Virus record (IMG/VR): IMGVR_UViG_2851976983_000003
Length of the DNA stretch: 45,144 nucleotides
Origin: a virus
Lineage: Duplodnaviria > Heunggongvirae > Uroviricota > Caudoviricetes
Strand: one strand, 5' to 3'
Within the stretch, counting starts at the first letter, position 1; each line of letters starts with the position of its first letter. The position numbers and the translations under genes are program-made. Below, one piece after another: positions 20,040-37,692 of the stretch. The notes under the pieces are model-generated. The model was not told the DNA's origin, did no database searches, and saw only the letters and a program-made list of their open reading frames with translations.

Positions 20040-20424
20040 AATATCGTCCTGTACTGATATCACCCCGGGAACTGTCACACCGTTGCAGGCGGATATAACA
20101 GCATCCCCCGTCGTCCGGAGTAATGCGATCCACCCGAAAAAGATCCCCGCCAACCTCCAGCGTATCCAGACGGCGTAGCCCCGTAATATCTGCTGTTTTC
20201 ACAAACAAAGACGGTGAAGAATCTTCAAACCGTACACCTCCGGCAACGAACGAAATTTTTTCAGGATCATCAAAAACACCCCTGAGTGTTTTTCCTTCAA
20301 GCTGACCGGACGTAATTACCGTCGTAATCCCCATATGACAAAGAATGACCGCGTCAGCCATGGCGACGGCGGCATCAAACGGATTATCGAAATCTGCCAC
20401 CTTTCCCCCCCCCACATTCAACAC
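20026..20424 (-). CDS. FII: Head-tail connector FII
   Basis: Contains ADFDNPFDAA…GVFDDPE…SPSLFV…PDDGG matching lambda FII; the true start is probably the GTG before ADFDN, near 20400. Confidence 0.8.
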   Translation of the reverse strand: MLNVGGGKVADFDNPFDAAVAMADAVILCHMGITTVITSGQLEGKTLRGVFDDPEKISFVAGGVRFEDSSPSLFVKTADITGLRRLDTLEVGGDLFRVDRITPDDGGCCYIRLQRCDSSRGDISTGRYYERP

Positions 20425-20798
20425 ATTTTCACGAGGCCACTTTCTGCCATGCTGGCTGCCACCACAGCAGATACACGAAACACGTCTCCCGGACGTACAA
20501 ATGCCACGGGGTTATCCCGTGTGGCGTGAAGTGCATTGACATGTAACATCACCACAGCTTTGACCATGACCATATCCACAGAATTTCGGTTCTCACTCTC
20601 CCCACGTTCGGATCGTGTTTCGTTTTTTTGTTGTGGTTCTTCATTATCCTTATACAGGCCGTCTGAACTATCACTTAATTCTTCTTCCCACTCCGCCAGG
20701 CGTTGTTCAAGATCAGCTTTAGAGCCTGAAATATCGGCATCGCGCCCGAGTACTGCCGCCAGATCCTGAAGACGCGCTGTTATTTCTTCTTTTGTCAT
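20418..20798 (-). CDS. FI: DNA packaging / head assembly protein FI
   Basis: Start placed at MTKEEITARLQ (lambda FI: MTKDELIARLR); C-terminus …HVNALHATRDNPVAFV… matches. Confidence 0.8.
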   Translation of the reverse strand: MTKEEITARLQDLAAVLGRDADISGSKADLEQRLAEWEEELSDSSDGLYKDNEEPQQKNETRSERGESENRNSVDMVMVKAVVMLHVNALHATRDNPVAFVRPGDVFRVSAVVAASMAESGLVKMC

Positions 20799-20848
20799 CA
20801 CATCTCTCCTGTGCGATAAAGAAAAAGGCGGGAATATCCCGCCTGACC

Positions 20849-21877
20849 TTATTTCACCTGAACCACCACAAACGCGTCCGGATCCGGCAACACCATCAAC
20901 GGCGCAGACTGCGTCATGGTATATTCGCACCCCGGGTCCCCCACCTCTAACCAGTGTTTCGGATAACGAATTGCAGAGGTAATCCCTTCACTCAGCGCCT
21001 GGTTATCCTGGATTGCGCCATAACAACGGACACCCTCCACCTGAGTGTTTCCAAGAATCAGTGTGCCTTCCGGCAGATAACGCTGCTCATCGCCGTTTTC
21101 ATCAACATACGTTGTTTTCGCCACCATGATGGCCAGATCACCGTAATAACCTTTAAAAGAAACCACGGACCCCAAATCTTTCAGCGCGGTTTCCAGTTCA
21201 GATTTTGAGCCACGGCGGGTATCCAGTTTTTCACGAAACAGTTTAAAACCGTTCAGCATACGCCAGACAGTACCGTCCATAATCGCAATATTGATGGTAC
21301 CGGAAGCGAAATCGCAGTACGCATCCAGATCATGCGTTGGATCAAAGGTGTCAGCATTCTGCTGTGACCATTCGCGTCCGCTAGCCTGCGTAATGTTATT
21401 GGCGGCAGAACGCCCAAAATCCACTTCCACCGTCTCAAACTGTTCACCGCTCATGGTGTACTTACCCTGCAGAACAGCGCTGACCGCCTGCATTTCTTCC
21501 ACCTGCACAATCGCCTGTTCTTCCTGTTTCAGGTTGTCAGTCAGAATACGCAGGCGACGGTAGGCCGGGTCATTAAGACGGGCCGGATCTTCCCCCGGAA
21601 GACGCTCCACCGCCTGCTGATAATCCAGCCGGTGTTTTGGTTTAACATAGCCGGGGCGTAACACGCGGGTTTCACCACCACGACTGCGCAGTACCTTACC
21701 TGACACAACCGGAGACACATATGCCGCAACCGGTGTTTTTCCGGTGATTTTATCCAGCATCACTTCCTGAGTATGGAAAGTGACCGTACGACGAAAAAAC
21801 AGCTCCAGAAACAGCGCACGGAATTTCACTTTCTGCTCGGTGTAGCCGAGCAACTGACGCGTGGTAAATAACCCCAT
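20849..21877 (-). CDS. E: Major capsid protein E
   Basis: Start placed at MGLFTTRQLL; strong colinearity with lambda gpE (EEMQAVSAVLQGKYTM…, KLDTRRGS.SELETA…). Confidence 0.9.
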   Translation of the reverse strand: MGLFTTRQLLGYTEQKVKFRALFLELFFRRTVTFHTQEVMLDKITGKTPVAAYVSPVVSGKVLRSRGGETRVLRPGYVKPKHRLDYQQAVERLPGEDPARLNDPAYRRLRILTDNLKQEEQAIVQVEEMQAVSAVLQGKYTMSGEQFETVEVDFGRSAANNITQASGREWSQQNADTFDPTHDLDAYCDFASGTINIAIMDGTVWRMLNGFKLFREKLDTRRGSKSELETALKDLGSVVSFKGYYGDLAIMVAKTTYVDENGDEQRYLPEGTLILGNTQVEGVRCYGAIQDNQALSEGITSAIRYPKHWLEVGDPGCEYTMTQSAPLMVLPDPDAFVVVQVK

Positions 21878-25705: not shown

Positions 25706-27625
25706 TTATCCTCCACTCAGAGCAGCTGCGATTTCTTCAATAGTCATTTCATCGTCGTCCTGTTCATCTCTTCTGGCGCGGGCCAGTGCATCCAGATCCA
25801 GTTGCCACCGCTGAACGGAAATGCGCAGCGCTGCATAGGCATACACCAGACAGTCCAGGGCTTCATTACGCCGTTTTCTGGCATCCCACTGGAGTTTCAC
25901 CCGCCCGTTCACAACTTTTTCAACCAGCTCTTCTGCCACGAGTTGTTTAGCTTCAACATCAGAAAAAATGTCCGGGTTATCCAGAAAACGGAAGGTATAC
26001 GGTGCTACTTCACTGGCAGATACCACCGGCAGGGCAAAACGCGCATACAGCATTTCCTTGACGGTATCGGAACCCACCTCACACAAAAACACCCCACGCT
26101 GGTTTCGCTTTTTTGGCATGGTGATCACCGGCTTGCCGTACACCGACGCCCCTTTGATGGGGAGCACAAAAAAAGTGCCGTGTTTTCTGGATCGCTGATA
26201 CACAATGTCCTGGTCAATACCACCGGTATCCCAGCAGACGCGGGAAATGGAAATTTCAGTGCCATCTGCATGACGGTATTTTTTCCGGATCACGGCATCA
26301 ACGCGTTTAAGGGTGTCCTCATCTTCCGGTCTCCCCATGATGATCTGCTTGTCAATCAGAAAAGCTTCTTCGCCAGGAGCCCAGCCCCAGACATAAATCT
26401 CATAACGGTTTTTCTGAGAGTCGATCCCTGCGGTCAGGTAAACCACCCGCAGGGGAACCTGCGCATCATAGTGGCAGACTTTTTCCAGCAACAACTCAAA
26501 GCTCAGTTTTTCTGCCACAGCCTCTTCATAAGGCTCCCCCAGCGTGGTGTTAATGAACGTCTTGACGCCATTCGGATCCTTCAGTGCATCAAGCCAGTCA
26601 TAAACAATCTGTACCCAGGTGGTGAACGGGCTGTATGCCGTCCAGATGTGGTACGAGATTGAGCGCGGTGGCGGGATTTCCTCATCACCGGCGCTGTAAA
26701 ATGTCAGACCGTCACGCGTCCACATCCCGGTATTGTCACAAATCCACCGCCCGTCGGTCTGGTCAAGTTCCGACTGCCGGATCACACAGCCATTATGTTC
26801 ACACAGGTAATACACCGTTTCCGGTTTACCCTTCTCCCATTTCAGGCCAAACGGCGTCGCATCATCGCCAAACTTCAGATACTGGGCTTCACCACAATGA
26901 GGGCAAGGGACATAAAATCGCATGAAATGCGCAGATTCATTCGCGGCTTTTTCAATCTGGCAAAAACCTTTAATTTTGGGCGTTGAGCCGCGTATGGATT
27001 TAGGCCATACCGAACCTTCGATACGCTTATCGCCAAGCAGGGTTGGTGAACCTTCTTTTTCCACATCCGGTTCAAACGAGGAGAGTTCGTCATAGCAGAC
27101 CACATCCACAGATTTTTCACGGTAGTTTTTGGCAGCAGCTCCGCCCAGACACCAGAATCCCACACCGGAGGAGAAACGTTTCAGGGTAAGCGTGTTGTCC
27201 CGATGTTTTCTGCCAAACCACGGAGCCAGCTCCAGTAATACAGGAACGTCTCTTATCGTTGGTTCGACATGGGATTTCATAAAATCTTCTGCCGCAGAAT
27301 CTGTCGGCTGAAAAAGCAGGCTGTTACGGGATTTGTGTTCAATAAAATAAGCCTCCACCCCCAACAGCATTTTGGTGTAACCAACACGCGCCGATTTAAT
27401 CAGATTAACGGTGCGGATCCGGTCATTCCCCATGCTGTTCATGATGGCAACCTGAAACGGCAGTGTTTCCCATTGCCCGGGAGTATATGAAGACTCTTTT
27501 GGCAGATAATAATACTGATCAGCCCACTGAACTGTCGTCAGTGGTACCGGAATATTGAGAGATACAAGCCCTGTTGCTATCGCACCGGCTGCATTAGCTG
27601 CCTTCTGTGCGTCTGAAATCATCAA
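25706..27625 (-). CDS. A: Terminase large subunit A
   Basis: 639 aa, lambda gpA-like; start overlaps the end of nu1 as in lambda. Confidence 0.95.
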
Positions 27626-28142
27626 TCCACCCGCCTACGTTCTCACCAGCTTTAGCTGCAACGTTGGAGGCTTTTGCGATTTCAGTTTTCACCACATCAA
27701 GGTGTGACGGTGAAATATCCGGATATTTACGCTGTAATGTCAGCGGCACACGTACAAGTATCCCCGAAATCTCCTGTGCCACACGTTGCAGAATGAAGGT
27801 AAACAATTCCGTTTCCAGTACCAGCCCTTCTTCGCGGGCATTCTTCAGTTCCTGTGCATCAGCCTGTGCTTTTGTGAGTCGGTAGCGTTCATAATCAATG
27901 GTGCCGGGTTGTAAATCTGATTCCGCAGCCGCACGCAAATCCTCGGTCTCTTTGCGGAGTTTTTCGTTTTCAATATCGGCTTCGCGTTGCGCATACCACT
28001 GAATTGCCATGGAGGTATCAAATACAGATTCAACGCCCTTACCACCTCCGGAGACGCAAGGGAGTCCCTGAGACTGCCAGCGTTCAATCGTTCGCGGATC
28101 CACGTTGAAAATTTCGGCAAGTTTCTTTTTGTTAACCTTCAT
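27594..28142 (-). CDS. nu1: Terminase small subunit Nu1
   Basis: 182 aa; [28 protein letters not shown]…ADIENEKLR…[29 protein letters not shown] closely matches lambda Nu1. Confidence 0.9.
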
Positions 28143-28149
28143 GAAACAG

Positions 28150-28330
28150 TCTCACAACAAACACAGGGTCCGACATGAAAGTGCCCGAAAATGACTTTTT
28201 TAGGCGTTTTCATGTCGGACCTTTTACGGATTCGATATTAGAAAAAACAAATAGTTATGTTCGAGAAGTACCGACATGATTTTCCCCGGAAAATTTTCAT
28301 AAATAGCGAAAACCCGCGCGCCTTCCGCCC
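28150..28330 (-). other. cos site: cosN-like nick region (12-nt end GGGCGGAAGGCG at 28319-28330) plus cosB with three ATGTCGG-type repeats
   Basis: Minus strand reads GGGCGGAAGGCGCGCGGGTTTTCGCTATTTATGAAAATTTTCCGG, nearly identical to the lambda left end GGGCGGCGACCTCGCGGGTTTTCGCTATTTATGAAAATTTTCCGG; about 180 bp upstream of nu1. Confidence 0.75.
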
Positions 28331-28604
28331 CGTGGCAGGCCACCCCACCGGAAGGACCCGCACAAATGAGAGCTTTTATCATTAACATTTACAGATAAGA
28401 TGACGTACATCATTGAAACGCCATTCAGCCATATACCGGCAGCATTCGTAGTTGCACTCCGTAACCCTGCGACTAAGGTTGAAAGCATGGCCATCTTTTT
28501 GCCACCGGCAAATCTTCAATGGATTTCCCCTGCCGGTTTTTTATTTCTCACATTATCGCAGCCACTCAGTGTGAAGGGCTGCTGTAATGCCGCAATCTTT
28601 TTTA

Positions 28605-28632
28605 ACATGAAAAAGGCCGCAGAGCGGCCTTT
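28605..28632 (-). terminator. Rho-independent terminator downstream of the 71-aa ORF
   Basis: ggccgc-aga-gcggcc stem followed on the minus strand by a T-rich run. Confidence 0.55.
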
Positions 28633-28651
28633 ATGGTTTATTGACAATTGA

Positions 28652-28867
28652 TTAAGACGTGTGGCACTTATTGGCACACCAATAGCAACCATTCACCCGG
28701 GAATATCCTTTGGCCTTTGCCTCTGTTACCGCCGAAGAACAATCACTATAGTAACCAAGGTAATCGCGGTTAGCTACAGCAGGAAGATATGAACATTCCT
28801 CAGCATGCACCTCATGATCGCCATTGCTCTGAGCATTTTTGTTCACGTAATAGTGTTTAAAAACCAT
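28652..28867 (-). CDS. Hypothetical small Cys/His-rich protein (moron between lysis genes and cos)
   Basis: 71-aa ORF with 5 Cys and several His (…NGCYWCANKCH), in AT-rich DNA and followed by a terminator; function unknown. Confidence 0.4.
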   Translation of the reverse strand: MVFKHYYVNKNAQSNGDHEVHAEECSYLPAVANRDYLGYYSDCSSAVTEAKAKGYSRVNGCYWCANKCHTS

Positions 28868-28990
28868 TGTATAACTCCATGTTGACGCTGATATTCAGCA
28901 TTAACATGCTATATCACCAATTACACAAACATAAGCTTGTTATTTCAATTAGTTGATAACGATCACCACTGAACTTTGGACTTGCGAAAT

Positions 28991-29200
28991 TCAAATGTTT
29001 TTCTGACTATTATTGGGCCGATAAACAGATATTATTTGAGCGTTTTGGTTCATTACATAAGCAATATCTCCATCTTTCAGAATGACTTTCCCATCCTTTC
29101 CCGATACGGCAATACTCCGCTGCTCTGGATGATAGCCAATGCTACGCCCGCAATGGAGCTCTTCCCCACCATTTTGAGACATGACTTTTACAGTTAACAT
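28991..29200 (-). CDS. Hypothetical small protein
   Basis: 69-aa ORF in an AT-rich segment in late-gene orientation; no recognisable motif. Confidence 0.3.
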   Translation of the reverse strand: MLTVKVMSQNGGEELHCGRSIGYHPEQRSIAVSGKDGKVILKDGDIAYVMNQNAQIISVYRPNNSQKNI

Positions 29201-29287
29201 TTTTCTGCTCCTATTTAGATGCCCTTTCCATCCGGGCCACTGTTCAAAGTAAATTTAGATTCAACAATATTCTGCTCTTACAGGCGA

Positions 29288-29470
29288 TCAGTTCTGCATA
29301 CACTGCCTGGCACTTTCGACAATTTCGCAGACCTGCGAGGCCGTATCGAAAAGCTGGCGCACCTTATCCAGGCTAACGCATCCCACCAGGAAAAAAGGCA
29401 CCAGTATCGCTACCAGTGCCCATTTCGCCGCCGTTCGCGGCATTCTGTGTGTCCAGTGTTTTCGGCTCAT
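29288..29470 (-). CDS. Putative small lipoprotein (possible spanin-like lysis accessory protein)
   Basis: Start placed at MSRKHW…; signal-like hydrophobic stretch and lipobox-like FFLVGC; overlaps the 3' end of the endolysin gene. Not Pro-rich like Rz1. Confidence 0.4.
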   Translation of the reverse strand: MSRKHWTHRMPRTAAKWALVAILVPFFLVGCVSLDKVRQLFDTASQVCEIVESARQCMQN

Positions 29471-29484
29471 AAACCACCTGGTTA

Positions 29485-29868
29485 TTAGCGCTTCAACTGA
29501 AAGTGAGGCCCGTCTTTCAGTGTTTTCCAGTCCCCGCCCCATTCGATGGCAGTTCCCAGCTCTGCGGCAGCCTGCTTAAATGCCTGCGCGATTTTCTCGT
29601 ACAGAGGCCAGTCCCATGACACCTGGCTACCAATGTAGGCCACAACATCCACCGCATCACCGGTCAGGTGGCGGCTGTTCATGGTCTGGCTTTTCCCTTC
29701 CGCGACCAGCTGCTTCTGGCGATACTTACTGCGCAGGCCTTCCGTAATACCGAAGTCAACCTCCGTCAGCTCCAGCGCACGGCGAACAACAGCAACCAGC
29801 TGTGGTTTGACGCCCTCCAGATTTTTCTCACTTCGACGACTGAATCTGAATTTACCGGGCATACTCAC
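29485..29868 (-). CDS. Endolysin, peptidase M15-type (L-alanyl-D-glutamate endopeptidase-like)
   Basis: 127 aa; SRHLTGDAVDV and GGDW…DGPHFQ zinc-binding motifs typical of M15 peptidases; sits in the lysis cassette. Confidence 0.8.
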   Translation of the reverse strand: MSMPGKFRFSRRSEKNLEGVKPQLVAVVRRALELTEVDFGITEGLRSKYRQKQLVAEGKSQTMNSRHLTGDAVDVVAYIGSQVSWDWPLYEKIAQAFKQAAAELGTAIEWGGDWKTLKDGPHFQLKR

Positions 29869-30140
29869 CTCCGTAATGAAAGGATTTTTGAAACGTTCCC
29901 GCGTGCACGTATCACCAGCACGCAGAACAGCAGATTAAGCCCCACCGCCAGCCAGTTCGCCGCTAACGGGCGACCGCACAGATAACTGAGTGGTGCAAAG
30001 GCATACAGCAGCATCAGCAGCCAGGCCAGCCATGACATCAGCGGCTTATGTCTGGAATCGCGACGACGATAAAAAAAGAGCGTCAGCACGATAACCGTGC
30101 ATAACGCCACATTCAGCAATCCGGGAAGGTTACTTAACAT
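29865..30140 (-). CDS. Putative lysis-cassette membrane protein (holin/antiholin-like, 2-3 TM segments)
   Basis: Start placed at MLSNLPGLLNVALCTVIVLTLFFY…; hydrophobic helices; between the holin-like gene and the endolysin. Confidence 0.45.
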   Translation of the reverse strand: MLSNLPGLLNVALCTVIVLTLFFYRRRDSRHKPLMSWLAWLLMLLYAFAPLSYLCGRPLAANWLAVGLNLLFCVLVIRARGNVSKILSLRR

Positions 30141-30522
30141 TGCCGCCACCTCCGCCCCGCAGGCGGGAGAACACACCGGACACCAGCGATGCAATATCCT
30201 GCTGGTGGATGAACGACAGAACCTTCACCGACACCACCGATACCAGCACCGCACACAGCGCATCTGCCGATGTACCGTCATACCCTGTTTTTGATGCAAT
30301 CCAGGCTGACAGCACACGCGCTCCCAGCACGCCGACAATAAACGACACCAGAAAATGCGCCACCACACGCCAGACTGAAAGCGCCTGCGGCATCGTTGCC
30401 ACAAATAACGCCCCGGCGAACGCACCAAACACAATCCCGAAATCCGTTCCGGTAAACAGCCCGTACACCGTCGCCCCACCGAGCGCCGCAGCCGTGCCGG
30501 AACCGGATAAGGGTTCAGACAT
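30130..30522 (-). CDS. Putative holin (multi-TM, Gly/Ala-rich)
   Basis: Start placed at MSEPLSGSGTAAALGG…; several hydrophobic segments; first gene of the lysis cassette. Confidence 0.5.
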   Translation of the reverse strand: MSEPLSGSGTAAALGGATVYGLFTGTDFGIVFGAFAGALFVATMPQALSVWRVVAHFLVSFIVGVLGARVLSAWIASKTGYDGTSADALCAVLVSVVSVKVLSFIHQQDIASLVSGVFSRLRGGGGGNVK

Positions 30523-30539
30523 ACGTTTTTCTCCTGTAA

Positions 30540-30565
30540 ATAAAAAAGGGCCGCCAGCGGCCCGT
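30540..30565 (-). terminator. Rho-independent terminator immediately upstream of the lysis cassette
   Basis: gggccgc-ca-gcggccc hairpin followed on the minus strand by TTTTTTATTT. Confidence 0.6.
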
Positions 30566-30689
30566 AAAAACACCCCGTCAAAGGCACCCGCAGATGCCTT
30601 TTGCGCGGCGTTATTTGATGTGATATGCGCCGGGTGTGGCGAGGATATGAAAAAGGCCCGCCGTAGCGAGCCATGAAAAAAAAATGAAT

Positions 30690-30718
30690 AAAAAAAACCG
30701 CCTGGTGCGGCGGTTAAG
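30690..30718 (-). terminator. Second rho-independent terminator between the tRNA array and the holin
   Basis: aaccgcc-tggtgc-ggcggtt hairpin followed on the minus strand by a long T run. Confidence 0.55.
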
Positions 30719-30990
30719 GATGTATTTCCAGGTTTTGCTTAGTACGCGATTAATCTCAACGTTATTCTGAGCGATGCTTACAACATCGGAATGATGCATC
30801 ACCGACCCTGCCAGGAAATACAAAATCTCCACCGATAATGCACCATTCTGCTGTCGTAAAAAAATCAGCACTGAGGCTACACCTGGCCTCAAATTATAGC
30901 CAGAGAACAGAATGCTTTTTCAAAACAACCTGCTCCCACGTAATAAAAAATACACCAGTGCCGCAATACAATAAGGCTTGTTGCAAATGC

Positions 30991-31065
<75 letters not shown>

Positions 31066-31068
31066 ATA

Positions 31069-31144
<76 letters not shown>

Positions 31145-31146
31145 AC

Positions 31147-31223
31147 TGGACCGCCACCGGGGACTCGAACCTCGCACACTCAACTTAAAGGGTTGACGCT
31201 CTTTCCTGATGAACTGGTGACAG
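31147..31223 (-). tRNA. tRNA-like gene, atypical (anticodon loop CCUUUAA, nominal anticodon UUU; possibly degenerate)
   Basis: 77-nt foldable cloverleaf with encoded CCA, but two G-U pairs in the acceptor stem, C at position 8, C at position 33 and an A-C mismatch in the T stem. Confidence 0.45.
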
Positions 31224-31224
31224 T

Positions 31225-31300
31225 TGGTGGCCCTTGCTGGATTTGAACCAGCGACCTGGCGATTATGAGTCGCTCGCTCTCACCACTGAGCTAAAGGGCC
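31225..31300 (-). tRNA. tRNA-Ile2/Met-type (anticodon CAU; ileZ/ileX-like)
   Basis: 76-nt cloverleaf, acceptor ggccctt/aagggcc, anticodon loop ctcataa, T-loop ttcaaat, CCA. Confidence 0.8.
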
Positions 31301-31349
31301 GGGAGCAGAATAATAATGGTGCGTAATTAATTCTGCAATCTCATCCGTT

Positions 31350-32399
31350 TCAAACGATTAAATCCTGAACTTCCCTGACTGTCTGTTCAAAACGTCCTGT
31401 CTCCAGCTCAACACCAATCGCACAACGCCCCAGTGCCATCGCCGCTTTTACCGTTGAACCTGAACCCATAAAAAAATCTGCAACCAGGTCTCCCGGACGA
31501 CTGCTCGCGTTGATTATCTGCTGCAGCATTTCTGCCGGTTTTTCGCACGGATGTTTCCCTGGATAGTACTGCACCGGTTTATGCGTCCAGACATCGGTGT
31601 ACGGAACCTGCGCCGTCACACCGAAATACCGCCGCAAATTTTTATATTCACTCAGCAATTCCGTATACTGCCGGTTCAGCTCACTGTATGTGCTGACCAG
31701 CTGGTGGTGTGGTTTTTCCAGTTCCCCGCGCTGATGTTTTTCTGCCGCAACACGCGCAAACAACGCCTGCAATTTGTTGTAATCACCCTCGTTCGGTAAC
31801 TGCCACTGACTGGTACCAAACCAGTGCGAAGCCATGTTTTTCTTTCCGGTGGCTTCCGCTATCTGTTTTGACGTTATTCCCAGTGATTTACGCGCATCAC
31901 GAAAGTAAGAAATCAGCGGGGCCATGACGTGCTGTTTTAGCTCGCGCCCCTGTGCCACATAGCCATCATCTTTCGGGCGATACGGTCCCTGATAATGTTC
32001 TGCAAACAGAATGCGCTCTGTTGCCGGAAAATACGCCCGCAGACTTTCCTTATTGCACCCGTTCCAGCGTCCGGACGGCTTCGCCCAGATAATGTGGTTC
32101 AGCACATTAAAGCGCTCACGCATCATGATTTCGGTGTCAGATGCCAGGCGATGACCACAGAACAGGTAAAGACTTCCGGCAGGCTTCAGTACCCGCCAGA
32201 ACTGCGCCAGACACTGGTCCAGCCATTTCAGGTAATCATCGTCGCCCTCCCACTGGTTATCCCAGCCCTCGGGCTTCACTTTAAAGTATGGCGGGTCTGT
32301 GACTATCAGATCGACAGAGTTTTCCGGTAAGGTCTGGATAAATTTCAGGCAATCAGCGTTGATTAACTCACAACTGGATATTTTTACAGTATTAGTCAT
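31350..32399 (-). CDS. Orphan DNA methyltransferase (N6-adenine/N4-cytosine, DPPY motif)
   Basis: 349 aa; IVTDPPYF catalytic motif near the N-terminus and FMGSGST SAM-binding motif near the C-terminus; no adjacent restriction endonuclease gene. Confidence 0.85.
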   Translation of the reverse strand: MTNTVKISSCELINADCLKFIQTLPENSVDLIVTDPPYFKVKPEGWDNQWEGDDDYLKWLDQCLAQFWRVLKPAGSLYLFCGHRLASDTEIMMRERFNVLNHIIWAKPSGRWNGCNKESLRAYFPATERILFAEHYQGPYRPKDDGYVAQGRELKQHVMAPLISYFRDARKSLGITSKQIAEATGKKNMASHWFGTSQWQLPNEGDYNKLQALFARVAAEKHQRGELEKPHHQLVSTYSELNRQYTELLSEYKNLRRYFGVTAQVPYTDVWTHKPVQYYPGKHPCEKPAEMLQQIINASSRPGDLVADFFMGSGSTVKAAMALGRCAIGVELETGRFEQTVREVQDLIV

Positions 32400-32966: not shown

Positions 32967-33710
32967 CTAATCTGACGTCACACGCACCATTATACTTACT
33001 AAAGAAAAGTCATCATCAGGTCCGGCTCTCTCTATACGACGCAAAATGCCATTAGAAAACTTCTGACTATTACTCATCGTATTTGATGTAAATCTGGGGC
33101 GTTTTTCCCAAACGTTATGAACCCCATCAGACATGATACACAGATGATATACCCCGTTAATACTAGGTAAATCTTTCCATGTGATAAAATCACAGTCGTA
33201 TTCCATATCAACATTTGAGGCTATAGCCGTCGTTAAGATATTTTTGCCCGGTTTATCCTTCAAATCTCTGGGTTTAAAAATATTCTGATCAATTAGCATC
33301 TGATGCCTGGTATCGTCCTTCGTCAATTGGTATGCTTTCTTCTCTCCAATGCAATACAAACGACAATCACCAATATGACCAATAATAATTCCGCTATCAC
33401 AAACATAACAAAACGTAAGTGTAGTAGCAGCTTTATCGAACTCATCATTAACATCAGCTAACGACATAACCTTTCGCTTAACTTCATCAAATACATCCGG
33501 AACTGTGTCAAAAGATAAGCTTGTCAATGCTGAAAGTTCAGCAATTGCCATTGATGAAGCCTGACTGGCACCAGTGTATGAACCTACACCATCAGCTACG
33601 GCAAATAAGATGCCATCCCCTACAATTTTGGGAGGAAGCAATGAATCTTCGTTGACCCTACCTGGTTCTTTTGGATACGAGAATGATGAAGTCGCTATCA
33701 GCTGAATCAT
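32967..33710 (-). CDS. PP2C-family Ser/Thr protein phosphatase
   Basis: 247 aa; PP2C motifs AVADGVGS, GDCRLY, SDGV and a C-terminal acidic DDD cluster; start ATG overlaps the kinase stop (ATGA). Confidence 0.8.
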   Translation of the reverse strand: MIQLIATSSFSYPKEPGRVNEDSLLPPKIVGDGILFAVADGVGSYTGASQASSMAIAELSALTSLSFDTVPDVFDEVKRKVMSLADVNDEFDKAATTLTFCYVCDSGIIIGHIGDCRLYCIGEKKAYQLTKDDTRHQMLIDQNIFKPRDLKDKPGKNILTTAIASNVDMEYDCDFITWKDLPSINGVYHLCIMSDGVHNVWEKRPRFTSNTMSNSQKFSNGILRRIERAGPDDDFSLVSIMVRVTSD

Positions 33711-34471
33711 GACTCACTCCTTAAAAAAGAATGCACAAAATCAAACGCCACATCATCTATTGTCTGATATCTATCATCTTTATCCATCCTGGTACACTTC
33801 GCTATGATAGGCTTTATTTTTTTATCATCTAAATTTAAGTCCTCAATTAACCGCCCCACCGCATAAACATCAGTCTTAACTGAATACTCGGCATTATATA
33901 AAATCTCGGGAGCCATATATCTTGTACTTCCCATACGGGTACCGATCTCGGTCAATTTAGTGGTATCCCCTTCGGGATTTGTATCTTTTACCAGACCAAA
34001 ATCAGACACCTTGTATGTTCCGTCGCTAAATCGCAAGACATTAAATGGTTTTATATCTCTGTGTAAATAGCCTTTCGCATGGATGTGAGCTACACCATCT
34101 AATACCATTTTCACTATTGAAATTTTTTGATCTGTTGTAAGAAGGTTGTTCGTTATTTCGTGCTCAAGATCACATTCTGCTTTATCCATAATGAACCATG
34201 GATTCTCGGCAAACAAATCGCACAAATAAATAGGAACAATATTGCTATGTACGCAATGTGATTGATACACGACCTCCCTTTTAAAACGCCTTCTAAACTG
34301 CTCTATTTGCGCCAAAAGCTCTGGTTTTTCGGGGGCTAAAACCTTTCTAGCATAATCCCCACATTCACCCTTGTTGAGGTTGTAAACCTTAACGTGTTCA
34401 ACAAAGCCAAATGCACCCCTTCCAATCAACTGAATTCGTTTTATAAAGTAATTACCGTGCTGTTCTTCCAT
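33707..34471 (-). CDS. Hanks-type (eukaryotic-like) Ser/Thr protein kinase
   Basis: Complete catalytic motif set: G-loop GRGAFG, lysine in YARKV, HRDIKPFN catalytic loop, DFG, APE (YMAPE), DVYAVG. Start placed at MEEQHGNYF; the ORF track starts 25 codons upstream. AT-rich. Confidence 0.85.
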   Translation of the reverse strand: MEEQHGNYFIKRIQLIGRGAFGFVEHVKVYNLNKGECGDYARKVLAPEKPELLAQIEQFRRRFKREVVYQSHCVHSNIVPIYLCDLFAENPWFIMDKAECDLEHEITNNLLTTDQKISIVKMVLDGVAHIHAKGYLHRDIKPFNVLRFSDGTYKVSDFGLVKDTNPEGDTTKLTEIGTRMGSTRYMAPEILYNAEYSVKTDVYAVGRLIEDLNLDDKKIKPIIAKCTRMDKDDRYQTIDDVAFDFVHSFLRSES

Positions 34472-34544
34472 TAAGCTCACCGACCTAAATTGTAAGAATA
34501 TCCATATCTTACAACTACAGATAAAAAGGTCCACAGAGTTAAGC

Positions 34545-34569
34545 AAAAAACCCGCATTTAAGCGGGTTT
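34545..34569 (-). terminator. Rho-independent terminator just downstream of the Q-like gene (tR'-like candidate)
   Basis: Minus strand aaacccgc-ttaaat-gcgggttt followed by TTTTGCTT. Confidence 0.55.
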
Positions 34570-37299: not shown

Positions 37300-37692
37300 C
37301 TACTGCCCTGTTTTAACGAAGTTTTTAAAGGAAACAACTGCCTGATAGGGGTTTGGTTGACAGCCAAACATATTATCGCAAAAAGGCTTGATGAAAATTC
37401 TTGAGGATCCATCTTCATTTGGCATTTTACTCACTTGATAAGCGAGGAATGGACTATTTGGAGAGGGATTATAAGTGGAAATTAGCGTGTCTGTCGCCGT
37501 TTGAATTTTCCATGAGGAATTATTAGCCAACCAGAATTGCGCTCGTTTCCAATAAAAGTCACATTGCTTTTCATCATTACATGTTAGTGGCTTCATTGCT
37601 TCTGCTTTCAACGCTGGATCGACCTTTGCTGCACACCCTCCCAACATTACTGTTGCAATCATTACACCTGCGACTAAAACAAGTTTCTTCAT
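37300..37692 (-). CDS. Putative lipoprotein (moron, AT-rich)
   Basis: 130 aa; signal peptide with lipobox MLGGC (MKKLVLVAGVMIATVMLGGCAAK); several Cys in the mature part. Confidence 0.6.
   Translation of the reverse strand: MKKLVLVAGVMIATVMLGGCAAKVDPALKAEAMKPLTCNDEKQCDFYWKRAQFWLANNSSWKIQTATDTLISTYNPSPNSPFLAYQVSKMPNEDGSSRIFIKPFCDNMFGCQPNPYQAVVSFKNFVKTGQ

Follow-up and report, generated by a model that had tools for sequence, protein, structure and literature searches.

A small lipoprotein in the position of Rz/Rz1 in a phiP27-type phage lysis cassette: a candidate outer membrane lysis factor

In phage lysis, it is an open question how the outer membrane is breached when no spanin can be recognised. 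No spanin was found in 91 of the 677 phages of Gram-negative hosts (∼13%) surveyed by Kongari et al. 2018 (PMC6139136), and the disruptin of phage phiKT is the one answer offered to date. In the same catalogue, phage phiP27 (NC_003356) is listed with a "separated" two-component spanin. The assigned i-spanin has 64 amino acids (aa; 20348-20542), the assigned o-spanin is a singleton (20706-20861), and at 62 residues in total their periplasmic parts are the shortest recorded there. Among Stx phages, the Rz phamily is present in 277 of 279, and the two exceptions are phiP27-like Stx2e phages with a metallopeptidase endolysin (Pinto et al. 2021, PMC8136144). Here we describe a lysis cassette of the phiP27 type on a stretch of 45,144 nucleotides (nt) from a tailed phage (IMG/VR virus record IMGVR_UViG_2851976983_000003), hereafter called the window. 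The last gene of this cassette (29288..29470, minus strand) encodes a 60-aa prolipoprotein, and the o-spanin catalogued for phiP27 is a 51-aa form of it.

The cassette itself is already known and is of the phiP27 type. phiP27 carries the same four genes in the same order at ∼90% DNA identity (genes L28-L30 plus an unannotated or misannotated open reading frame, ORF, for the lipoprotein, which is 88% identical), and in both phages a tRNA cluster and a DNA methyltransferase gene lie upstream of the cassette. In phiP27, however, a ∼480-bp insert with a 90-aa antisense ORF splits the endolysin and lipoprotein genes, whereas here the second follows directly after the first. phiP27 also has stx2e upstream and non-lambda packaging genes, whereas the virion genes in the window are lambda-like. 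A 2.1-kb stretch is 100% identical to prophages of Escherichia coli E24377A and four other strains, and in the identical prophages RefSeq labels the lipoprotein a "hypothetical protein" (WP_126125481.1). Of 5426 complete E. coli genomes, 351 (∼6%) carry the lipoprotein gene, in up to seven copies each, and the deposited phages with this cassette are phiP27, phiSTEC1575-Stx2k, and vB_Apl-pPE4. The E24377A prophage copy (L006, NC_009801.1 1283292-1284043) is deleted from inside the small terminase gene to a truncated lom and is without head and tail genes. The window (25706-28142 compared) retains a 639-aa large-terminase ORF and the complete run of virion genes, and it is therefore an intact relative and not E24377A itself.

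The new points are that the two-component assignment in the catalogue does not hold and that, in many mosaic contexts, the lipoprotein occupies the Rz/Rz1 slot by itself. The phiP27 ORF that the catalogue lists as an i-spanin (NC_003356 20348-20542, which is L001 3345-3539 in our locus set) starts with TTG and matches no PHROG. It sits in the ∼480-bp insert, antisense to the 90-aa ORF, which matches phrog_36812. The catalogued i-spanin ORF occurs in two of the 87 loci compared (80 contigs from IMG/VR, together with records of phages and E. coli) and is absent from the window. It is probably spurious, and thus the published two-component assignment fails for the lipoprotein family. We judge the evidence evenly balanced on whether the lipoprotein performs the outer membrane step of this cassette, having replaced Rz/Rz1 there. 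The role that fits it best, and the most likely one, is that of an outer membrane lysis factor that acts without a partner.

The gene for the lipoprotein begins with the ATG at 29470, 14 nt past the endolysin stop codon, and is preceded by AGGTGG 3 nt upstream. An earlier note on this DNA, made from the sequence alone, had described a small lipoprotein gene that overlaps the endolysin 3′ end, encodes the only spanin candidate, and is not Pro-rich. The last two points stand, but with the start site 14 nt beyond the stop codon there is no overlap between the two genes. The 84-aa ORF that does overlap the endolysin gene is merely the longest ORF. Its extension is an alternative frame of the endolysin 3′ end and is missing where GH108 replaces M15. 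The shorter 51-aa form starts at Met10, which is the start used by some gene callers and by Kongari et al. This form is excluded because Met10 is not conserved across the family; many homologues have V, I, T, or Q there. The ATG at 29470 is further supported by residues 2-9, whose protein sequence is conserved under synonymous codon variation.

Hydropathy analysis and a lipobox scan divide the precursor into a basic n-region of 16 aa with a charge of ∼+5, MSRKHWTHRMPRTAAK, an h-region, and the lipobox LVG↓C with Cys31. The mature peptide has 30 aa, CVSLDKVRQLFDTASQVCEIVESARQCMQN, with no Pro, a net charge of −1, Val at +2, and a hydrophobic moment (muH) of 0.55, and it is predicted to form an amphipathic helix. 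Hydropathy after the signal peptide reaches a maximum of 0.22, and no hydrophobic segment lies beyond residue 38. The Val at +2 should direct the lipoprotein to the outer membrane. Across the family the lipobox is L[VA]GC and the +2 residue is V, A, T, S, G, or E, never D. In 18 diverse members, from a family whose identity falls to 28-35%, the Gly-Cys of the lipobox, Cys48, and Cys57 are invariant, and 8-9 residues separate the last two. The n-region (codons 1-16, 29425-29470) is also conserved as protein, with an RKHWTHRxPR motif and a pN of 0.08 versus a pS of 0.29, and this extends to distant members. Such a long conserved n-region is unexpected in a signal peptide that is cleaved off, and it is reminiscent of colicin lysis proteins, whose signal peptides are stable.

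The lipoprotein gene is under purifying selection. For 47 unique intact genes, dN/dS is 0.195 over the whole gene and 0.17 over the mature part, and the ORF is intact in 53 of 54 unique sequences. The protein matches phrog_7528, of "unknown function" (E = 1e-35), but a check against spanin families with hidden Markov models gave nothing: there is no match in Pfam (E ≤ 0.1; Lysis_col, Entericidin, and Rz1 included), NCBIfam, or PADLOC. When 1.84 billion representative proteins were searched with a profile of the family, only 23 clusters matched, and thus no bridge leads from the lipoprotein to a known family. An hhalign comparison with the LysC-like o-spanins of Serratia and Yersinia M15 cassettes gave a probability of 4%, with the signal peptide alone aligned. 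A profile search of the PDB with the lipoprotein family returned spurious Cys-rich or PCNA matches only.

The position of the lipoprotein gene is constant. All 87 loci have the gene order Phage_holin_8, Phage_holin_3_7, endolysin, optional small genes, and lipoprotein. The endolysin is of the M15 type in 56 of these loci and of the GH108 type in 29, and in about half of them the lipoprotein gene is directly after the endolysin gene, as in the window. In divergent homologues (a Yersinia enterocolitica prophage, two metagenomic contigs, and a Cronobacter prophage) the four-gene order is kept, with a 4-nt overlap or a 6-nt gap. These divergent cassettes adjoin HNH/Terminase_4 myovirus, Terminase_6/Mu-F, or Terminase_2 genes; with the lambda-like module, the unrelated packaging modules found beside the cassette number at least four. 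In the most distant clade, a single lambda-S-type Phage_holin_3_1 replaces both holins and is followed by M15 or GH108 and then by the lipoprotein. A scan of IMG/VR with the divergent Phage_holin_8 gave two loci, too few for a holin-based survey. Overall, the lipoprotein is the last lysis gene in 100 of 100 loci, which include three holin types, two endolysin types, and several packaging modules. Since its position is constant across holin, endolysin, and virion types, the lipoprotein is tied to the lysis function as such. The modular mosaicism that the earlier note had seen in this region is strongly supported by the four types of packaging module and by the exchange of M15 for GH108.

The distant cassettes with a lambda-S-type holin carry a further gene after the lipoprotein. 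In L095 and L096 (4450-5310) it encodes a 286-aa alpha/beta-hydrolase (phrog_789, esterase/lipase), and in L098 and L099 (L098 4461-4895) a 144-aa protein with an N-terminal transmembrane domain (TMD) and a charged tail (phrog_6169). Either protein could be an extra envelope-directed lysis factor in those phages.

Two comparisons reveal that the lipoprotein replaces Rz/Rz1 at the same slot. The first used 80 genomic loci that encode relatives of the M15 enzyme. After close M15 homologues of Serratia, Yersinia, Oceanisphaera, Massilia, and Neisseriaceae, a canonical i-spanin gene with an embedded or overlapping gene for a Pro-rich o-spanin follows 12-39 nt on. After the M15 gene of Citrobacter braakii, whose product is 93% identical, the 60-aa lipoprotein is encoded at +19. 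The second comparison concerns two small membrane protein genes, tm60 and tm44. Phage PhiR12_2 has the order R-tm60-tm44-Rz/Rz1, and E. coli EC11 has the order GH108-tm60-tm44-lipoprotein. Their DNA is 84% identical over tm60-tm44 and then diverges, continuing as Rz in PhiR12_2 and as the lipoprotein in EC11. With these two comparisons, the suggestion in the earlier note that the lipoprotein may be an unusual spanin has gained positional evidence, and the protein is a candidate for such a role.

Decayed or unannotated copies of the gene also occur. In GER2, an Stx phage with a canonical S-R-Rz cassette, the only copy is a pseudogene with in-frame stops (L092 3483-3692), located between the Rz region and the terminase genes. 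In ∼35 E. coli records there are 60-80%-identical copies without an annotated gene, which were seen as DNA matches and not translated; the copy in the O104:H4 outbreak strain C227-11 (NZ_CP011331.1 1860538-1860721) is of that kind.

The genes tm60 or tm57 (phrog_1115/4493) and tm44 (phrog_4906) encode tiny, C-terminally anchored membrane proteins, and in both types of cassette they lie between the endolysin gene and the outer membrane lysis gene. The pair precedes Rz/Rz1 in PhiR12_2 and the lipoprotein in EC11 and phiSTEC1575-Stx2k (L005 3376-3710; L003 2645-2818; L182 2501-2829). These proteins are candidate lysis accessory factors. They were rejected as i-spanins, given that they have C-terminal anchors and also stand between R and a canonical Rz in PhiR12_2.

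No gene for a partner of the lipoprotein was found. A lipobox scan of the whole 45-kb window, in six frames and with all start codons, found only this gene and an unrelated 130-aa lipoprotein. When the whole window was scanned for an N-terminal TMD with a charged tail, lom, hok-like, and tail proteins were recovered, and no i-spanin-like ORF. Likewise, tblastn with lambda Rz and Rz1 gave no match in the window or in 86 related loci. As a positive control, the topology scan was applied to phage GER2, where it recovers Rz, the embedded Rz1, and the signal-arrest-release (SAR) endolysin, and it is therefore sensitive enough. The same family-agnostic scan was applied to 100 lipoprotein loci over the interval −3 kb to +2 kb, and among ORFs of this topology only the prolipoprotein itself recurs. 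The 144-aa protein with this topology, whose PHROG is of unknown function, was present in two loci only (L098 and L099). The earlier note had reported no recognisable Rz/Rz1, and this observation withstands a search for a pair embedded in another frame. The lipoprotein is the only spanin candidate in the window.

If the lipoprotein is a partner-less outer membrane lysis factor, then lysis by this phage might proceed as follows. The Phage_holin_3_7 protein, perhaps in concert with the Phage_holin_8 protein or under its control, would permeabilise the inner membrane at a set time, and the soluble M15 endopeptidase would then cross this membrane and cut the peptide stems of the cell wall. The prolipoprotein would receive its lipid, be cleaved at Cys31, and reach the inner leaflet of the outer membrane as a lipopeptide of 30 residues that is amphipathic and helical and contains Cys. 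There it would carry out the third step of lysis, the breach of the outer membrane, in place of Rz/Rz1 and without a dedicated phage partner in the inner membrane. The most plausible mode of action, by analogy with colicin lysis (BRP) proteins or entericidin B, is that the accumulated small lipopeptide would directly destabilise the outer membrane. Oligomers stabilised through the two invariant cysteines may be involved. With no dedicated inner membrane partner, such a protein would be neither a two-component spanin nor a unimolecular spanin of the T1 type. In this scheme the identities of the genes, the lipobox and topology, the purifying selection, the fixed last position, the exchange with Rz/Rz1, and the lack of an i-spanin gene are observed, whereas the outer membrane location of the lipopeptide, its lytic role, and its mode of action are inferred.

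Several observations weigh against this proposal. The case for the lipoprotein rests wholly on position and association, and the interval between endolysin and cos is a known hot spot for morons (bor in lambda, LT-IIb in SerU). Other small genes stand between the endolysin and the lipoprotein in ∼40 of the 87 loci. The mature peptide is non-cationic, at its net charge of −1, and its sequence resembles neither BRP nor entericidin nor any family of o-spanins. An AlphaFold2 model from the 23-sequence alignment is a single long helix with a pLDDT of 65 and a pTM of 0.30, which is too weak for a fold search. A lipopeptide of 30 residues is too short to span the periplasm, and we know of no spanin that works without an inner membrane anchor. 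Finally, spanins are dispensable in some laboratory conditions, and so a truly spanin-less phage is conceivable.

This last point leads to the alternative that survives best, although we consider it unlikely on the whole. The lipoprotein would be an accessory late or moron protein, active in lysis timing, superinfection exclusion, or surface and virulence functions, and the phage would have no spanin at all, as may be true of the ∼13% of surveyed phages in which none was found. Small phage lipoproteins with other roles are described in the literature (Bor, Cor, and T5 Llp), the present one has no homology to any lysis protein family, and the slot after the endolysin accepts unrelated inserts, among them KilA-N, a 93-aa ORF, tm57/tm60/tm44, and LT-IIb. 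However, a moron of this kind is difficult to reconcile with the organisation of the gene, which has no promoter-like site before it and is closely coupled in translation to the gene upstream (by the 14-nt gap here and by 4-nt overlaps elsewhere). It travels with lysis genes and not with tail or receptor genes, over unrelated virion modules, and it takes the place of Rz/Rz1 at exactly the same junction. Moreover, the gene has decayed in GER2, which bears Rz, and the absence of a PADLOC match also speaks against an accessory role.

A further alternative, which we regard as improbable, is that the lipoprotein is the o-spanin of a two-component system with an unrecognised partner in the inner membrane. 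The partner could be a holin-family protein, a small TMD protein, a host inner membrane protein, or the uncleaved precursor, and the last of these would give a use to the unusually long n-region that is conserved as protein. The hallmarks of an o-spanin are present, namely the lipobox, the position after the endolysin, and conserved periplasmic cysteines; T4 PseT.2 also has two essential C-terminal cysteines (PMC6139136). The classification of phiP27 by Kongari et al. favours such a system as well, but the i-spanin on which that classification and the 62-residue periplasmic length depend is the TTG-initiated antisense ORF that is found in two loci and is missing from the window. No partner is constant. 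The holins switch between Phage_holin_8 plus Phage_holin_3_7 and Phage_holin_3_1. The tm60 and tm44 proteins are found beside canonical Rz as well, and they have a C-terminal anchor and no periplasmic domain. The 144-aa protein, encoded ∼245 bp downstream of the lipoprotein in L098 and L099, would suit the role by its N-terminal TMD and charged tail, but as a member of phrog_6169 it is restricted to those two loci. In addition, 30 residues are too short as a bridge across the periplasm.

We give little credence to a bolder form of the partner-less proposal, in which the lipoprotein would be a self-sufficient third class of outer membrane lysis protein, either as a homotypic minimal spanin or as a permeabiliser like BRP and entericidin. 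In the homotypic version, the mature lipopeptide in the outer membrane and uncleaved precursor, held in the inner membrane by its long conserved basic signal-anchor, would pair via the two invariant cysteines once the wall is gone. In the permeabiliser version, phages would have recruited a BRP- or entericidin-like lipopeptide in place of Rz/Rz1, and a hairpin embedded in the gene would gate its dose.

This hairpin (29396..29421, minus strand) is terminator-like, has an 11-bp stem followed by a T-run, and covers codons 17-27 of the lipoprotein gene, in the signal-peptide region. Its fold energy is ∼−20 kcal/mol, and 26 of 28 unique variants retain the hairpin, among them those of Yersinia, Citrobacter, and Cronobacter. 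Synonymous diversity is low at this site (pS of 0.069 for codons 17-25, versus 0.24-0.36 elsewhere in the gene), which implies selection at the nucleotide level. A search of 28100-31400 against Rfam found three tRNAs only and left the hairpin unmatched. That the ORF is non-coding, and its DNA kept only as an RNA hairpin or terminator or as a relic of a module junction, would agree with this lowered synonymous variation and with the lack of annotation in many RefSeq genomes, but it is very improbable and is contradicted by the selection data, given the low dN/dS of the mature region outside the hairpin, the invariant lipobox and cysteines despite the divergence of the family, the nearly always intact ORF, and the good Shine-Dalgarno sequence.

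The remaining genes of the cassette agree with what the earlier note had proposed for them. A holin-like protein, a second membrane protein, and an M15 endolysin precede the lipoprotein, all four genes are on the minus strand, and the family matches are far above chance. The module is non-lambda, as claimed, with an M15 peptidase in place of the R transglycosylase and two overlapping holin-family genes. The first gene (30130..30522) encodes a 130-aa membrane protein with ∼4 hydrophobic segments that matches Phage_holin_8 (PF16931, E = 2.6e-22, 79.7 bits versus a cut-off of 26.4) and the "holin" family phrog_198 (E = 4.4e-42). An AGGAGA Shine-Dalgarno sequence lies 7 nt 5′ of its ATG, and its RefSeq name is "putative holin" (WP_001294587.1). 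This protein could be a co-holin or an antiholin or have another role. The second gene (29865..30140) overlaps the first by 11 nt, has GGAGG 8 nt before its ATG, and encodes a 91-aa protein with three TMDs that matches Phage_holin_3_7 (PF05449, E = 1.8e-21, 76.4 bits versus a cut-off of 25.4) and the "holin" family phrog_217 (E = 2e-37). Its hydropathy profile has three hydrophobic segments, an RRRDSRHK basic cytoplasmic loop, and a basic C-terminal tail. The Pfam family, the three TMDs, and the charged C terminus all conform to a predicted class-I holin topology. A 149-aa ORF and other ORFs in alternative frames within the holin genes were also considered and were rejected; they are Arg/Cys-rich and are without a TMD or lipobox.

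The third gene (29485..29862) encodes a soluble protein of 125 aa, an L-alanyl-D-glutamate endopeptidase endolysin of the M15C type. It matches Peptidase_M15_4 (PF13539, E = 1.6e-12, 48.2 bits versus a cut-off of 25) and the endolysin family phrog_465 (E = 1.9e-75), and it aligns over its full length with L-Ala-D-Glu endopeptidases of known structure, namely with PDB entries 23ri and 8q2g and Serratia ChiX 5opz (E ∼1e-43) and with the T5 endolysin 2mxz (E = 1.6e-23). The Zn-binding and catalytic motif is H65-x6-D72 ... D117-x2-H120, and all four residues align with those of 23ri and ChiX. Hydropathy analysis of all 125 aa detects no transmembrane segment, signal peptide, or SAR domain. Judged by its sequence, the enzyme belongs to the canonical holin-dependent class. 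An M15 endolysin without a signal or SAR domain would need a large-hole holin, and the three-TMD Phage_holin_3_7 protein is the natural candidate for this function.

Three serial terminator-like hairpins (30715-30696, 30672-30655, and 30563-30548, minus strand) are located directly 5′ of the first holin gene. A terminator scan of the region gave 13 terminator-like sites, versus 4.0 ± 2.2 in shuffled sequences. We infer that the three hairpins are barriers that are read through by Q antitermination before the late lysis operon. A gene for antiterminator Q sits upstream in the identical E24377A prophage, which fits a Q-antiterminated late operon. RefSeq annotates an 86-aa "hypothetical protein" (WP_000904532.1; 30611-30871, minus strand) that overlaps two of the three hairpins. 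Its apparent TMD (FFLFIFF...) is a translation of the terminator T-runs, and it has no match in Pfam, PHROG, or NCBIfam. This is probably not a real gene.

Several other features of the window adjoin the cassette. The tRNA cluster (30991-31300, minus strand) is situated between the DNA methyltransferase gene (31350-32399, minus strand) and the lysis cassette, and it includes Gly-TCC, Thr-TGT, and a tRNA with a CAT anticodon that is called Met by ARAGORN and Ile by RefSeq. The same slot holds tRNAs and stx2e in phiP27, and SerU-LTIIb has LT-IIb toxin genes just past the endolysin. Upstream of the methyltransferase gene, the ORFs of 32967-34546 (minus strand) have counterparts in the related E24377A prophage that bear the annotations serine/threonine kinase and PP2C phosphatase, an unusual pair near a lambdoid late region. 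On the other side of the cassette, two small ORFs (28991-29200 and 28652-28867; phrog_3909 and phrog_4298) lie after the lipoprotein gene and upstream of the small terminase gene. They are followed by a bidirectional terminator-like hairpin (28612-28632) with a perfect 9-bp stem and T-runs on both strands. The second, unrelated lipoprotein of the window is encoded in the early region (37300-37692, minus strand). It has 130 aa, the lipobox LGG↓C, a match to phrog_16082 (unknown function), and a weak match to the Cor superinfection-exclusion family (E = 0.007).

The lipoprotein family offers a clean test case for outer membrane breach that is tractable in E. coli, where its ∼6% of complete genomes include Stx2e and Stx2k toxin phages and prophages of enterotoxigenic strains. 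Established assays are available, namely complementation of lambda Rz/Rz1 amber mutations and the spherical-cell phenotype in Mg2+. If it is true that the lipoprotein works alone, then it represents a new class of outer membrane disruptor, corrects the catalogue entry of phiP27 as a two-component spanin, and provides a very small genetic part for controlled lysis or outer membrane permeabilisation. The answer is also relevant to how Stx2e and Stx2k prophages release toxin. If instead the lipoprotein is not a lysis factor, then the cassette is an ordinary mosaic module of a kind already described.

Among known outer membrane lysis systems, two-component spanins such as lambda Rz/Rz1, P2 LysB/LysC, T4 PseT.3/PseT.2, and Serratia ChiY/ChiZ, which stands beside the M15 enzyme ChiX, resemble this cassette in their o-spanin half. 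Both have an outer membrane lipoprotein signal, conserved periplasmic Cys, and the last position among the lysis genes, and the lipoprotein occupies the genomic slot of these spanins after homologous M15 endolysins and after tm60-tm44. At the level of sequence, it has the o-spanin features of a lipobox signal without Asp at +2 and of conserved periplasmic cysteines (Cys48 and Cys57), whose disulfides are putative. However, no i-spanin gene is adjacent to, overlaps, or embeds it in the window, nor is one present in 97 of the 99 other loci among the 100 examined. The mature part, at 30 aa versus at least 40, is also shorter than that of o-spanins, contains no proline, is predicted to be helical, and aligns with them at an hhalign probability of only 4%. 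It likewise falls below the length needed to bridge the periplasm, for which the catalogue minimum of 62 residues is itself derived from this lipoprotein family and a doubtful i-spanin. Without an i-spanin, the lipoprotein is not part of a two-component spanin. The unimolecular spanin gp11 of phage T1 is similar in that one gene with an N-terminal lipoprotein signal replaces Rz/Rz1. In contrast to gp11, the lipoprotein here has no C-terminal TMD and is far too short to reach the inner membrane, and without this domain it is not a unimolecular spanin.

BRP and entericidin B are made as precursors of 45-60 aa with a lipobox, which yield mature lipopeptides of ∼27-33 aa, and outer membrane permeabilisation by BRP depends on OmpLA. 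The lipoprotein is in the same size class as these proteins (Lysis_col, PF02402, and Entericidin, PF08085) and shares the lipobox, and by analogy alone it may share the function of permeabilising the outer membrane. It differs from them in giving no match to either family in Pfam at E ≤ 0.1 and none in NCBIfam, and in its context, which is a phage late operon. To our knowledge, the two invariant cysteines of the lipoprotein are absent from BRPs. The colicin lysis proteins and entericidin B, unrelated in sequence, are proposed as its nearest functional analogues. As far as we know, disruptin, gp28 of phage phiKT, is without a lipoprotein signal, and it is cationic and resembles antimicrobial peptides, whereas the lipoprotein described here has a mature net charge of −1. 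The two are nevertheless alike in design, since in phiKT a single small protein that is not a spanin carries out outer membrane disruption in a phage without a spanin (bioRxiv 10.1101/515445). Placed among these systems, the phiP27-type lipoprotein is a credible new variant of outer membrane lysis factor, and one that is directly testable in E. coli.

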